In this document: in pieces, positions 5,552-19,323 of the stretch | Layout of the letters: each line of letters begins with the position of its first letter | Numbering within the stretch: position 1 is the first letter of the stretch | Source: an uncultured virus (IMG/VR IMGVR_UViG_3300042881_004667) | Lineage: Duplodnaviria > Heunggongvirae > Uroviricota > Caudoviricetes | Reading direction: 5' to 3' (one strand) | DNA: 20,000 nucleotides | IMG/VR virus record: IMGVR_UViG_3300042881_004667 | Translations under genes and position numbers: made by a program | Notes under the pieces: model-generated | The model's input: the letters and a program-made list of their open reading frames with translations, nothing else | What the model was told of the DNA's origin: nothing | Database searches by the model: none

Positions 5552-5890
5552 ATGTTTTGCAACGAGCACGAGCCCCTCGCCCTGCTAGTTGAATTAACAC
5601 CAAAGCTTGCCAAAAAACGTTTTAGACAAAGCATATATGAAGCCTGGGATTACAAATGCGGATATTGTGGTGACTCGGCGTCAAGCCTTGATCATATTAT
5701 TCCAAGGTTTAAGTCGGGTTCTTCTAATCGACATAATTTGATTCCTTGTTGCAGGCGTTGTAACGCAAATAAAGGATCAGAGGATATGAAAAAGTGGTAC
5801 GAAAAACAATCTTTTTTCTCTTCCTCGTCTCTTGCTAGGATTGAAGCCTGGATCCTGCAACAATCTGTTTTTATTTTTGGTGAATGCTAA
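5552..5890 (+). CDS. HNH endonuclease (McrA-like, Zn-binding)
   Basis: CGYCG, LDHIIP..SG...RHNLIPCCRRCNANKG. Confidence 0.9.
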   Translation: MFCNEHEPLALLVELTPKLAKKRFRQSIYEAWDYKCGYCGDSASSLDHIIPRFKSGSSNRHNLIPCCRRCNANKGSEDMKKWYEKQSFFSSSSLARIEAWILQQSVFIFGEC

Positions 5891-9222: not shown

Positions 9223-9648
9223 ATGTCTAACGCCAACAGCCGTTTTGTTTCTGTGTATTGTGAAACATGTGGATGCGAAGGATCCATTCGGCTAGATCAG
9301 TACACTCGCCGACAGGGGTTATGGAAATGTAGATCTTGCAATAAGAAAGGGCAAGTACCAGCTAATAAAGGCACAGGAGTAAAAAATAATCCTGCACTTT
9401 TTAGAACGCGTTCTAGTTATTACAAAGCAAAATATCGTTGTAAAACGGGTCACAGAGGATACTACGTAAATGTTGAGTTTCGTTTTACATCACTTCAACA
9501 GTTGATTGACGAGATTGGAGTAAGGCCCGAAGGTTACAGTTTAGATCGAATTGACAATTTAGGACACTACGAACCAGGAAACGTAAGGTGGGCTACACAC
9601 AAAGAGCAATGTAATAATAGAAGAAAGAAAGGTACTGTTCAAAAGTAA
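9223..9648 (+). CDS. HNH-type putative homing endonuclease with an N-terminal zinc ribbon
   Basis: CETC...CRSC, plus RPEGYSLDRIDNLGHYEPGNVRWAT..EQ.NN, typical of phage HNH-like endonucleases. Confidence 0.8.
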   Translation: MSNANSRFVSVYCETCGCEGSIRLDQYTRRQGLWKCRSCNKKGQVPANKGTGVKNNPALFRTRSSYYKAKYRCKTGHRGYYVNVEFRFTSLQQLIDEIGVRPEGYSLDRIDNLGHYEPGNVRWATHKEQCNNRRKKGTVQK

Positions 9649-16797: not shown

Positions 16798-18810
16798 ATG
16801 GCGTACGGCACAATTAAGGTTGATACAATCACCTTTACTGATGGTGGTGTTGATAAAAGCGTTTCAGTTTCTGGTTTAGTTGAGAATCCTACCTTTACAG
16901 GAAACGTAACAGCAACAGATACTATCTCTGGGGACATCTTACGAGGCCAAACAATTTCAGGTGTTACCGTTACTGGTACCACTGCAAACTTTACTAGCGG
17001 TAACTTTATTAATATCAGCGGTGGTACTCATACCATTACATCGGGTGTATTTGCGTCAGGTACTGCAGCAAATCCATCGATTAGTTTTGTATTAGACCCA
17101 AATTCTGGACTGTACTCCCCCGGCGCAGACCAAGTAGCCATCTCGACTGGTGGGTCTGGGAAGATTTTCATTGCCGCAGATGGAAAGCTTGGGGTACTAA
17201 CAGCATCTCCAACCACTGCTTTAGATGTTGCGGGCGGGATTTCTGGAACTGGAGCCTTAAATATCAGCGGTGGGGGATGGGGTGTCTTGTCTTATGTCGC
17301 CAACTCTTTTGTTGTTGATAGCGTTCCAGGACAAACGCGAATATTCGCAACCGGAACTGATGCTTCAACTCACGGCAATCTTCTTTTCTTTACGGGCACA
17401 ACTAATGGCACTGCTGCCGAGCGCCTCCGCATCACATCGGACGGGAGACTAGGTCTGGGGACTAGTATTCCTGGCAGCTTTAGTGCAGCGGCAAACCAAC
17501 TTGTTGTTGGCTCTGGCAGTGGTGCAAGCGGAGTAACAATTTTTTCAGGCTCCGCAAGTGCTTCAAATATCTTCTTCTCAGATAGTACAGCTTCTCCGAG
17601 TGTTGGATTTATACAATATGAACACACCACAGATGCGTTAAGACTTGGAACTAATGATGGAACAAGGCTTTACATTGATTCCTCAGGCCGAGTAGGGATT
17701 GGCACTACGGCGTCTCCGGTTGGTGCATCAATCAAACTGACACTTGATGGCTCAAACGGTGGCGGCATTGAACTTGTTTCTGCTAACAATGGCGGAGGAG
17801 CACTTGTTCCATCAGCAGGTGGCGGAATTCAGTTTTATACACATACCGGAGCTGTTGGATCTGAGTCTTATTCCGAACGCGCCCGCATCGACAGCTCCGG
17901 CAGGTTGTTAGTTGGCACGTCTACGAGCGCTAGCGCTGGCGATTCGCAATACTCCAAGCTGCAGATACGTGGCAACACATCAGGAAATCCACAACTTGGG
18001 ATCATCTCAATTCAAAGAGATGAAGCGGCATCTGCTATTACCACCGGCGAAGGCATTGGTGAGATTGTATTTACAGACAATGCCGGCAATACTTTTGCCG
18101 CTGTTGTTTGTGAAGCCGATGCAAACGCCGGTTCGGGTGACTATCCAGGGAGACTAACGTTCTCCACTACCGCCGACGGAGCGAGCAGCCCGACGGAGCG
18201 GATGAGGATTGGGAGTAACGGATATGTTCAATTTTCGGAAACAGGAACATACAGTCCTGACGCTACCAGTGGTTGGCACAAGTTTTACCAGTCTGCCGAT
18301 CAAAGGTGCATTCAGACCTACAGTACTAGCAGCACATTTACAAATTACTCGCTTATTCAATACATTGCTGCCGGGGGCGGCACAGGGTCCGGGTTTGCTT
18401 CTGGATATAGCGACAATGGCTCTATTCAACGCTACATTATCTTCTCAAATGGAAATATCCAAAACACAAACAATAGCTACGCGGGTATCTCGGACATCAA
18501 GTTAAAAGAAAACATTGCAGATGCAAACTCGCAATGGCTGGACATTAAGTCGTTACAAGTTCGCAACTACAATCTTAAGCACAGTCCCGGTCATCGACAA
18601 ATCGGAGTCATTGCCCAAGAAATTGAGCAGATTTCGCCTGGCTTGGTCTACGAGACCCCCGACCGCGACGAAGAAGGCAACGACCTTGGCACCGTCACCA
18701 AGAGCGTCAATTATTCGGTGCTCTACATGAAGGCAGTGAAGGCGCTGCAGGAAGCAATGGAGCGGATCGAAACGCTTGAGGCCGATGTAGCTGCACTCAA
18801 GACGTCGTAA
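16798..18810 (+). CDS. Tail fibre protein with a C-terminal intramolecular chaperone (Peptidase S74)
   Basis: Repeated ER.RI.S.GR.GIGT modules; SDIKLKENI...IGVIAQEIE...SVNYSVL...KALQEAMERIETLE matches the ICA cleavage site and coiled coil. Confidence 0.9.
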   Translation: MAYGTIKVDTITFTDGGVDKSVSVSGLVENPTFTGNVTATDTISGDILRGQTISGVTVTGTTANFTSGNFINISGGTHTITSGVFASGTAANPSISFVLDPNSGLYSPGADQVAISTGGSGKIFIAADGKLGVLTASPTTALDVAGGISGTGALNISGGGWGVLSYVANSFVVDSVPGQTRIFATGTDASTHGNLLFFTGTTNGTAAERLRITSDGRLGLGTSIPGSFSAAANQLVVGSGSGASGVTIFSGSASASNIFFSDSTASPSVGFIQYEHTTDALRLGTNDGTRLYIDSSGRVGIGTTASPVGASIKLTLDGSNGGGIELVSANNGGGALVPSAGGGIQFYTHTGAVGSESYSERARIDSSGRLLVGTSTSASAGDSQYSKLQIRGNTSGNPQLGIISIQRDEAASAITTGEGIGEIVFTDNAGNTFAAVVCEADANAGSGDYPGRLTFSTTADGASSPTERMRIGSNGYVQFSETGTYSPDATSGWHKFYQSADQRCIQTYSTSSTFTNYSLIQYIAAGGGTGSGFASGYSDNGSIQRYIIFSNGNIQNTNNSYAGISDIKLKENIADANSQWLDIKSLQVRNYNLKHSPGHRQIGVIAQEIEQISPGLVYETPDRDEEGNDLGTVTKSVNYSVLYMKAVKALQEAMERIETLEADVAALKTS

Positions 18811-18848
18811 CCCTACTCCCATCGAGGCGTGGCTTGGTATAGTAGATA

Positions 18849-19090
18849 AGTTCCCGCTCTGCCATTTGCATCGGGATTAAGTCCCTGTCAACAGGGCCTC
18901 ATCGGGTTTACCGAGGCTGACTCTCCGTAGGCAGTCCCCCGATGCGACAAGATCAGCGGTCGCGGATTCGCCAAGACTGCCGAGGTAGCCGAGCCCCTGG
19001 GAAACCGGGGGCTTTGGTGTGCTTGGGCGAATTCCTTGACCTGCGTGGTAGGGTGGGTGGGCAGGCGTGCGTCAACACCCTGCCCTGGCC
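18849..19090 (+). ncRNA. Candidate structured non-coding RNA or regulatory leader, family unassigned
   Basis: GC-rich intergenic region after TATAGT (18838-18843) with several nested stems, e.g. TTGCATCGGG/CCCGATGCGA, CCCTG/CAGGG, GACT/AGTC, GGATTCGCCAAG/CTTGGGCGAATTCC and GGGCAGG/CCTGCCC. Confidence 0.55.
18992..19015 (+). terminator. GAAA-loop hairpin, either a weak terminator or part of the RNA structure
   Basis: AGCCCCTGG-GAAA-CCGGGGGCT followed by TT; near-identical to the hairpin at 107-124 but with a short T tail. Confidence 0.5.
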
Positions 19091-19107
19091 ACGATCCCCT
19101 AGAGACC

Positions 19108-19323
19108 ATGACCCAACAAGATTACCCCAAGCTCACGCCTACCGAATGGCTTGAGCAGCGTGAAACTCACATGGAGAAGCATTCCGCGTGGGTTAAAGAT
19201 GGCGTTGTAATAATGGCAAACAACTGCGATCCGTATTACACGGAAGCATTTGAAACCCGCGAAGAGGTAGAGCGCTTTATTGCTTACCTGCTTCAGAAGG
19301 CTGATGAAGCTTGGCCAAACTGA
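19108..19323 (+). CDS. Small hypothetical protein (71 aa)
   Basis: ATG 19108 (MTQQDYPK...) is more plausible than TTG 19036, which lies within the structured region. Confidence 0.65.
   Translation: MTQQDYPKLTPTEWLEQRETHMEKHSAWVKDGVVIMANNCDPYYTEAFETREEVERFIAYLLQKADEAWPN

Follow-up and report, generated by a model that had tools for sequence, protein, structure and literature searches.

Few small RNAs encoded by phages have been described, mostly from model coliphages. The stable ones include the oop RNA of lambda and the species 1 and species 2 RNAs of T4, which are encoded in a tRNA cluster; RNA elements of another kind, boxA/boxB of lambda nut and the put sites of HK022, lie next to promoters and act on the transcribing polymerase. 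Here we analyse a stretch of 20,000 nucleotides (nt) (the window), read from the minus strand of an IMG/VR viral record of 31.4 kb (IMGVR_UViG_3300042881_004667), and in it a 297-nt gap between the stop of a tail-fibre gene (18810) and the start of a small gene (19108). An initial annotation had read 18838-19090 as one three-domain structured RNA, either a phage non-coding RNA (ncRNA) or a conformational switch controlling the small genes downstream. We conclude that 18850 to about 19024 is probably a stand-alone, modular ncRNA gene of about 175 nt, belonging to an uncultured freshwater phage.

Like the oop and T4 species RNAs, the RNA predicted here would be a short, untranslated, structured transcript with a sigma-70-type promoter and a terminator hairpin, situated between operons; as the T4 RNAs lie in a tRNA cluster, so the hairpin at its predicted 5′ end (SL1) heads tRNA genes in sister phages. 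It differs from them in having no sequence or Rfam relation, in not being antisense to a neighbouring gene and in being built of modules that occur separately in other phages. With nut and put it shares a conserved hairpin immediately 3′ of a promoter, and SL1 contains CGCUCU, presumably the core of boxA, a 6-nt likeness that may be chance; unlike nut and put, SL1 occupies one site per genome and, in eight contexts among the matches listed, has a tRNA within 1-7 nt. Mutually exclusive pairings from a duplicated 7-mer upstream of a terminator recall riboswitches and attenuators, but the terminator lies outside the alternative pairing, one of the genomic contexts (context B) has no regulated downstream gene, and no known ligand-binding family was matched.

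Two further comparisons are informative. The PeSL cassettes of T4-type phages, as passages of two reports describe them, combine an early-type promoter with a stem-loop and are repeated in each genome (PMC2839356, PMC4122927). The locus studied here resembles PeSLs, so described, in that a conserved promoter is joined to a stem-loop at the borders of shuffled modules in diverged phages. It departs from that description in that SL1 is single-copy in five of five genomes and in the window's own record, lies at the predicted +1 of the transcript, carries mostly non-coding cargo and is found across unrelated phages of 34-265 kb. The second comparison is with pseudo-ToxI of phage PhiTE, which a passage of PMC3475682 presents as an RNA mimic against an RNA-controlled defence. 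Stand-alone abiF RNAs behind SL1 in two sister units may be analogous; the window RNA has neither an abiF motif nor repeats, and its likeness to such mimics is by genomic position only.

The probable RNA unit and its boundaries

The unit and its promoter comprise the following elements, to which a second copy of the terminator-like hairpin elsewhere in the window is added.

18835-18843, plus strand: promoter P1, an extended −10 element TGGTATAGT (hexamer 18838-18843) without a −35
18850-18875, plus strand: hairpin SL1, GUUCCCG-CUC-UGC-(loop CAUUU)-GCA-U-CGGG, which includes CAUCGGG copy 1
18876-18898, plus strand: linker AUUAAGU, hairpin P2 (CCCUG-UCAA-CAGGG, 18883-18896) and CC
18899-18949, plus strand: middle part, lineage-specific, with CAUCGGG copy 2 (18900-18906) and the 3′ strand CCCGAUGCGA (18938-18947)
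18902-18905/18911-18914, plus strand: P3, in the middle part
18915-18919/18932-18936, plus strand: P4, in the middle part
18953-18983, plus strand: H4, an irregular hairpin GCGGUC-GCG-GAUU-CGC-CAA-GACUGC (18956-18980) with flanking UC/GA
18984-19024, plus strand: H5, a terminator-like hairpin with the core AGCCCCUGG-GAAA-CCGGGGGCU (18992-19013)
105-135 of the window (hairpin 105-126): H5 twin, AACCCCTGG-GAAA-CCAGGGGTT followed by TTTTG, upstream of the open reading frame (ORF) 157-891

In the reading that we favour, host RNA polymerase of the sigma-70 type would initiate at G18850, using a promoter with an extended −10 and no −35, and stop in the U-rich tract after H5. The transcript would be assembled from portable modules, namely SL1, P2, a lineage-specific middle and domain 2 (D2, which is H4 plus the terminator hairpin H5); D2 also stands alone behind the same promoter in sister phages.

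Most of the loci that we fetched around relatives of the tail fibre (80) and of the small gene (7) share only the last 73 nt of the gap (19035-19107). One further contig shares 18951-19107, and the whole gap is common only to a contig identical with the window. Motif scans of viral contigs and metagenomes recovered 18850-19027 at 90-92% identity in L090/L097 and L108, found 94% identity over 296 nt, flanks of the unit included, in L141, and placed the unit in L151 as well; the metagenome scan returned 12 loci, 9 of them real and 3 chance. The long form (domain 1 (D1) plus D2) is thus represented by 7 contigs with 5 distinct sequences, and the short form (18951 onward, D2 alone) by 12 contigs. 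Two more viral scans for D1 homologues gave only four contigs already known, and an nhmmer profile run over the collected loci gave none.

The long form occupies three contexts with flanks that are unrelated to one another. In context A, to which the window, its identical contig and L141 belong, it lies between tail fibre and small gene. Context B (L090, equal to L097, and L108) is the junction of two convergent gene blocks, where the next gene encodes an HNH endonuclease on the opposite strand; the genome that holds L090 is complete (33.9 kb), has terminal repeats and lacks a relative of the window's 514-amino-acid (aa) protein. Context C (L151) is behind a different gene.

All five distinct long forms are homologous from the G of GTTCCC/GTCACC onward, and each has a TAnnnT hexamer exactly 6 nt ahead of this G: TATAGT in the window and L141, TAGCCT in L090 and L108, and TAGAAT in L151. 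A variant from the RNA-library run X15 has TATAAT as its −10 box, and short forms have TATACT or TACACT 6 nt ahead of the first shared base. P1 itself has TG at −15/−14. We predict G18850 as the transcription start because the window is homologous here to SL1 contexts that bear a −10-only promoter signature with +1 at the G. The suggestion that TATAGT is a −10 box is upheld by the spacing, which is fixed at 6 nt across these contexts and in the SL1 contexts described below.

At the other end, homology between contexts stops after H5 and its U-rich tail. H5 has a 9-bp GC-rich stem, a GAAA loop and an interrupted tail (UUUGGUGUGCUU, 19013-19024), with which 18984-18991 pairs to form a lower stem; the lower-stem pair 18985/19022 is G-C in the window, G.U in L090 and A-U in L108. 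A scan listed as terminator-like the near-identical twin at 105-135, which ends in a T6 tail and has the form of a canonical intrinsic terminator, and it therefore appears that this phage uses hairpins of the H5 type as terminators. H4 is invariant in long and short forms save for one G.U to G-C change in L108, and H4 and H5 together are nearly invariant in all 19 contigs. D2 is an optional module that carries the terminator.

The unit is non-coding because stop codons, one or more per frame, interrupt all six frames of the window copy, variants are separated by 1-2-nt indels and substitutions lack 3-periodicity: the 40 variable ungapped sites fall 18/12/10 over the codon positions, a count partly inflated by local misalignment of the window row. 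That a small protein is encoded here, by ORF 18942-19154 (plus) or 18888-19109 (minus), is therefore extremely improbable. Both ORFs are present, and a minus-strand frame stays open across the element in 4 of 5 variants; both, however, cross the module borders at 18950 and 19035, beyond which relatives are unrelated, and neither has a Pfam match. ORF 18942-19154, whose conservation as a gene would have spoken against an RNA, gives no sign of it.

A different objection is that the interval is the 3′ untranslated region (UTR) and terminator of the tail-fibre transcript, a mosaic of recombining hairpin modules without an RNA function of its own. The site is indeed variable: L082, L085, L051, L068 and L056 each have a different simple hairpin there and others have D2 alone, D2 stands without a promoter in four loci, the element lies at the end of an operon in contexts A and B, and one RNA-library contig is continuous from the upstream gene. 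We consider this explanation unlikely. It is weakened by the fixed 6-nt −10 spacing, unexpected for a 3′ UTR, which is kept in three unrelated contexts and in 64 of 110 SL1 contexts among the matches listed; moreover, a terminator alone needs no 100 nt of conserved 5′ structure, and the 175-nt unit is 90-94% identical between phages that otherwise share nothing detectable. The idea of a phage ncRNA is supported for 18850 to about 19024 and falls for 18838-19090 as one RNA, since that interval is a mosaic of separately conserved modules.

The SL1 hairpin family

The first module of the unit is by far the most widespread. A scan of viral contigs with the pattern CCCGCTCTGC-N3-7-GCATCGGG located at least 120 loci in at least 110 distinct contexts. 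We define the SL1 family as GUU-CCCG-CUC-UGC-loop(3-7)-GCA-U-CGGG, occurring once per genome and placed at +1 of a promoter that has only a −10, and 18850-18875 of the window conforms to it. The counts that follow, out of 110 contexts, hold among the matches listed. Loops vary while stems are kept (TTCG in 26, CTCG in 11, also GAAA, GTAA and others), and GTT precedes the stem in 90. At the outer pair 18853/18875, C-G is replaced by A-U in L141 and L151.

Upstream of SL1 only T−12 (70/110), A−11 (84/110) and T−7 (84/110) are conserved. The spacer between TAnnnT and SL1 is 6 nt in 64/110 and 7 nt in 4, and every other spacer of 3-11 nt occurs in at most one context each. There is no −35 signal: at most 8/110 contexts have four of six TTGACA matches at any one spacer. 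Judged by sequence, this pattern is characteristic of −10-only promoters and places +1 at the G. P1, with TAnnnT at a distance of 6 nt, is of the same sigma-70 type.

SL1 is single-copy in all five genomes in which it was counted (58, 74, 85, 86 and 265 kb, three of them rated complete), in which a reversed-pattern control found nothing; psbA was not found in these five either. It occurs once in the window's own 31.4-kb record. In L151 a second SL1 copy (the first ~28 nt of the unit) stands 6 nt behind TAGAAT and ahead of a protein gene, the two copies being 230 nt apart. L213 has a tandem SL1 pair at about 425-475, of which the first ends in GGAT rather than GGGC. L019 and L085 also carry SL1 copies.

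What follows SL1 differs from phage to phage. Among the same matches, a structured element of ~60 nt (E2) comes next in 27/110 contexts and an AAGUCC-P2 hairpin, as in the window, in 14/110. A same-strand tRNA lies within 400 nt of SL1 in 16/110, and eight of these tRNAs begin 1-7 nt after it. Two protein genes follow in 6 and 3 contexts, abiF-like motifs in 3, and other sequences in about half. SL1 would then be a sequence-conserved 5′ hairpin that heads a single stable-RNA locus in many unrelated phages, a shared 5′ module that might serve stability, processing or recognition by a host factor.

Behind SL1 in two units, abiF RNA (RF03085) scores above its Rfam gathering threshold of 37: L167 559-595 with 53.5 bits and L237 650-686 with 41.9 bits. 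The next ORF in L167 resembles, by eye and by its motif, a sigma factor and not an AbiF protein. From stand-alone abiF RNAs behind SL1 it follows that an SL1 locus can carry an antitoxin-type RNA without an adjacent toxin gene, and the abiF RNAs of L167 and L237 are candidate phage-borne antitoxin mimics. The abiF-motif RNA neutralises the AbiF toxin through direct binding, according to a passage of PMC12373285.

Other features near SL1 were seen in passing. E2 reads GAUAGAGCCCAAGCCYCUGUGCGUCCUUGAGGCGUCUCACGCUUGGGCCAUC (L085 4037-4216, L019 5077). In L085 it fills the gap before an ORF of 300 aa, with SL1 ~190 nt upstream of the ORF, which by eye, from a C-terminal RHxxxxxY-type region, we take to be a tyrosine recombinase (integrase). 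E2 could represent a further phage RNA not yet catalogued, or it could belong to an attachment region. A tRNA-like unit lies ~30-110 nt after SL1 in L181, L202, L219, L244, L248 and L279. Its T arm (GCGGGTTCGAATCCCGC) is clear, and CACCCAG/CTGGGTG forms a stem resembling an acceptor; ARAGORN calls no tRNA there. A palindrome, GCAGGATCCTGC, stands directly upstream of the −10 (TAGCCT/TAACCT/TAGCGT) in L169, L173, L174, L181, L185, L186, L194, L202, L206 and others; this palindrome could serve as an operator, or it could terminate the gene before it.

We considered, and rejected, a general closure of SL1 by a downstream CGATGC. This motif is found downstream in 28/110 contexts of the matches listed, against 12 upstream and 8 for the reversed motif, but the excess comes largely from one related group of tRNA-like units and the 7-mer is not enriched.

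SL1 has so far escaped cataloguing. The family is absent from Rfam 15. Searches of the element and of SL1 plus E2 against INPHARED (50,697 phage records) and PLSDB (72,556 plasmids) gave short chance matches or none, and the H4 20-mer had one chance match, in Rhodopirellula, among 185,579 species genomes, in which SL1 itself was not searched. In the literature, SL1 strings appeared in no relevant context, string matches being primers or unrelated among the matches listed, and nothing relevant was found on ncRNA of cyanophages or of Synechococcus phage S-EIV1, the nearest isolated phage (44.8% protein identity over 98% of the 514-aa query).

Hairpin P2, the middle part and two folds

Every string that the initial annotation had named is present where it had been placed: TATAGT at 18838-18843, CATCGGG at 18869-18875 and 18900-18906, CCCGATG at 18938-18944 and GGGCAGG..CCTGCCC at 19059-19085. 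Its expectation that the region folds better than shuffled sequence was confirmed. The plus strand of 18838-19107 has a minimum free energy (MFE) of −124.8 kcal/mol against a shuffle average of −103.9 (z −3.78, 0/200 shuffles as good), the proposed cloverleaf is the MFE structure of 18862-18950 (z −2.67, 2/200 shuffles), and a third fold z-score counted in favour of structure is −2.55. The minus strand of 18838-19107 gave z −1.72, with 9/200 shuffles as good. L193, similar at the junction, was set aside because it folds no better than shuffles (z 0.21).

No known family accounts for this structure. With Rfam 15 (4,227 models, each at its gathering score) the whole window has 0 matches. At E values up to 10, the best match in 18700-19250 is symR on the minus strand, at 24.4 bits against a gathering score of 61 and thus at chance level, and no CRISPR-DR family matches. 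The Rfam matches in L141, L151, L158 and L160 include none on the element, and the 37-nt abiF RNA model (RF03085) matches neither the window nor the long-form variants. ARAGORN finds 0 tRNA or transfer-messenger RNA genes in the 20-kb window. A tRNA reading of the cloverleaf (18866-18947), whose closing stem is 10 bp long and whose arms measure 7, 4 and 5 bp, was rejected.

Hairpin P2 covaries strongly. Among the matches listed, a hairpin starts at the CC in 16 of 18 distinct SL1-...AAGUCC contexts; its arms, of 4-9 bp, have at least 11 different sequences, each complementary. A covariance model of SL1 plus P2 (R1), built from three members, aligned 97 matches, 82 of them distinct. In this alignment 6/6 P2 pairs are changed on both sides, P2 covariation is 0.037 versus 0.007 in shuffles (0/500 shuffles reach the score), and 99% of P2 cells are paired versus 27-45% when the partner is slid. 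R1 matches the window once, at 18850-18898 (46.3 bits, E 6e-10), which places the window in the SL1-P2 subfamily, defined by SL1, a linker with AAGU at its end and a hairpin that CC/GG closes. P2 is a hairpin kept in position and free in sequence.

The middle part, by comparison, is confined to the long form (7 contigs, 5 distinct sequences, and one variant in an RNA-run contig). Here the 3′ half of SL1 (GCAUCGGG) is repeated as CAUCGGG (18900-18906), and either copy pairs with CCCGAUG(C) at 18938-18945. The repeat and the complementary CCCGAUGC would allow two folds: a cloverleaf in which copy 1 is paired and SL1 opened (fold A, as initially proposed), or a series of hairpins in which SL1 stays intact and is followed by P2 and then by copy 2, which pairs with the 3′ strand and so encloses P4 (fold B). 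Constrained energies of A and B, in kcal/mol, are −74.3 and −70.8 in the window, −73.1 and −70.9 in L141, −73.3 and −75.9 in L090, −69.7 and −73.5 in L108, and −70.2 and −70.8 in L151, so that the folds differ by 0.6-3.8 kcal/mol in all five variants. The alternative pairing proposed in the initial annotation is thus real and energetically balanced; the control over termination attributed to it did not hold.

RNAalifold picks fold B, for which it also speaks that SL1 is autonomous in more than 100 other contexts. In favour of fold A are the change 18873 G>A together with 18940 C>U in L151 and, in the X15 contig, 18903 C>T with 18913 G>A, which keeps P3. Fold A is contradicted by 18871 T>C in the X15 contig, a C.A mismatch in its closing stem that in SL1 concerns only a bulged base, and by P3 being broken in L090 and L108. 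On these models a bistable design is plausible.

Several details of the first folding model did not survive comparison. Of the four other variants, three disrupt the inner hairpin CCTC..GAGG; GGCUG/CAG(U/C)C suits the variants better than GACT..AGTC does; and GGGAT-TAA-GTCCC, the proposed alternative fold of the first copy, exists in the window's own sequence only, the other variants having GGGCTAAGTCCC or GGTCTAAGTCCC. We likewise discarded the long 5′ pairing CUGCUUCGGCA/UGCCGAGGUAG of the L090 MFE structure, which is lost in the window and L108.

The covariation also bears on whether structure matters at the level of DNA. SL1 could be a PeSL-like recombination or protein-binding cassette, or the core of an attachment site, with RNA structure incidental. 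In its favour, the locus is a hot spot of mosaicism whose modules have sharp borders, SL1 is single-copy as an attachment site would be, it lies ~190 nt upstream of the integrase-like ORF of L085 (identified by eye), and its stem is conserved in sequence beyond what pairing alone would require. Against these points, strand-specific pairing that tolerates G.U and compensatory changes in P2, H5 and SL1 indicate RNA, and the minus strand folds no better than shuffles. PeSLs, as the passages cited above describe them, are repeated many times per genome (PMC2839356, PMC4122927), unlike the single-copy SL1, and the 185,579 species genomes yielded only the chance match to the H4 20-mer, SL1 itself not being searched there. 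We regard a DNA-level element as quite unlikely.

Flanking genes, RNA-library contigs and possible role

The surroundings of the unit belong to separate modules.

16798-18810 (stop codon 18808-18810): tail-fibre gene with a C-terminal Peptidase_S74 chaperone domain
18812-18818, plus strand: CCTACTC boundary motif, directly 3′ of the tail-fibre stop codon
19022-19035, plus strand: CTTGGGCGAATTCC, 3′ strand of the outer domain-2 stem of the initial annotation
19046-19054, plus strand: promoter P2 of the small-gene operon, an extended −10 TGGTAGGGT (hexamer 19049-19054)
19059-19085, plus strand: domain 3, an inverted repeat or hairpin GGGCAGG..CCUGCCC, at the start of the downstream gene's leader
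19108-19323, plus strand: downstream small gene, 71 aa, without a family match

Domain 3, which had been counted as part of the RNA, is conserved with the next gene and independently of domains 1 and 2. The block 19036-19107 travels with the small gene, whose homologues (83-86% identical in six other viral contigs, plus one identical copy) always have promoter P2 and domain 3 in front. Positions 19049-19054 are TAnnnT in 13/15 relatives, including relatives without domains 1 and 2, and CATAAT in 2/15. Across 15 loci the domain-3 core GGGCAG/CUGCCC varies little or not at all, with an upper stem of GUG/CAC in 10 and GAG/CUC in 5 (by eye; RNAalifold left these columns unpaired). Because domain 3 begins 4 nt after the −10, it may lie partly upstream of the start site, and it may act either as a 5′-terminal RNA hairpin or as a DNA operator. 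Positions 19036-19090 are the promoter and leader hairpin of the next operon.

This arrangement bears on the proposal that the element is a cis-acting leader or attenuator, in which P1 transcripts would enter the small-gene operon unless the fold terminates them at H5, with the CAUCGGG duplication as the switch. Context A is suited to such control: the element is directly upstream of the small genes and co-directional with them, the two folds are balanced, and fold A pairs the 5′ CUGCC with GGUAG of the lower H5 stem. The outer domain-2 stem (GGATTCGCCAAG 18964-18975 with 19022-19035) lies beyond the U-rich tract, so that only read-through RNA would contain it. Context A retains this stem, with compatible changes in L141 and in L138/L140; B and C, two of the three contexts that bear the RNA, lack it. 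The H5 core, however, forms in both constrained folds of all five variants, and the switch therefore does not govern termination. The CUGCC/GGUAG pairing is lost in L108, and the downstream gene keeps its own −10 past the terminator in 15/15 relatives, including those without the element. Nor do the other contexts fit, the next gene being a convergent HNH endonuclease gene in B and having its own promoter and SL1 copy in C. We therefore judge attenuation improbable and return to the stand-alone RNA gene.

The window carries phage genes, including those for an endolysin, a dCTP deaminase, two HNH endonucleases and the tail fibre. The two HNH genes (5552-5890 and 9223-9648) lie amid structural and lysis genes, and an HNH gene also adjoins the RNA in context B. 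CCTACTC (or CCTGCTC) occurs behind the stop codons of differing upstream genes in L082-L088, L134, L139 and L143-L149, and marks the left border of a conserved, shuffled intergenic cassette.

Four RNA-library runs were examined as contigs (X15, X16, X17 and X19). In X16 and X17 only the tail-fibre chaperone part (18640-18790) is covered, a segment to which many RNA-library contigs from aquatic, sediment and soil samples match at 85-99% identity; it is a conserved phage segment of wide distribution. X15 has one contig of 434 nt over 18790-19090, with 27 differences and 2 gaps, which enters a different upstream gene, and X19 one of 222 nt over 18938-19117 with a diverged D1 in front. As contigs cannot show ends and a library may hold DNA, they are no proof of a discrete transcript.

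Several observations count against a discrete, trans-acting RNA made from P1. The X15 contig spans both promoters. A −35/−10 consensus scan listed no promoter pair at the element, and a terminator scan did not list H5, because its U-tract is interrupted. In the short forms L138, L140, L146 and L152 a hairpin takes the place of a recognisable −10, and there D2 would be a 3′ UTR or terminator. Conservation of the SL1 stem is by construction, because matches were gathered by an exact-stem pattern, and the alignment behind the P2 statistics was itself fitted to the model. Covariation of the whole RNA is weak because there are only five distinct full-length sequences: 0.100 versus 0.084 (fold A) or 0.080 (fold B) in shuffles, with 41/500 and 20/500 shuffles, respectively, reaching the score, in an alignment that misplaces the window row by one column within the 5′ strand of the closing stem. 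The longest complementary target within the phage's own 31.4 kb is 10 nt (E 3.9). An anti-defence role is argued solely by analogy with the cargo that other SL1 units carry. Given that short complementarity, an antisense role inside the phage's own genome was rejected.

On the other side stand the conservation of the unit as modules, the signature of its promoter, the covarying pairs of SL1 and P2 and the lack of any coding signal. In the stand-alone reading the RNA would be made as a discrete species and act in trans. By analogy with what accompanies SL1 elsewhere, we tentatively consider a role in host takeover or counter-defence, as a decoy or an antitoxin-type mimic with SL1 as a shared 5′ tag. 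This is possible and falls well short of probable; we favour it among trans-acting roles because SL1 keeps company with tRNAs and stand-alone abiF RNA, occurs in single copy and is conserved in phages that are unrelated to one another. A bolder version, which we hold to be rather doubtful, is that SL1 is a tag, recognised by one host factor, of an 'RNA cargo locus' that is single-copy and common to many unrelated uncultured freshwater phages, with an RNA counter-defence arsenal as cargo and with the window's SL1 made switchable by CAUCGGG/CCCGAUGC. If so, the tag would license or protect stable phage RNAs, with tRNAs, abiF mimics and the window RNA as interchangeable cargo, and the window RNA would be a conformational decoy in which the tag is exposed or hidden.

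The unit at 18850 to about 19024 would be a well-delimited RNA gene of uncultured freshwater phages. In phages of 34-265 kb SL1 stands, at one site per genome, ahead of tRNAs, of abiF RNAs and of other structured RNAs. This suggests that phages share a means of expressing their non-coding RNAs, or of marking them, and perhaps, by analogy with the cargo, that the locus serves RNA-based counter-defence. The 26-nt motif together with its −10 box offers a handle for mining viromes for such loci.

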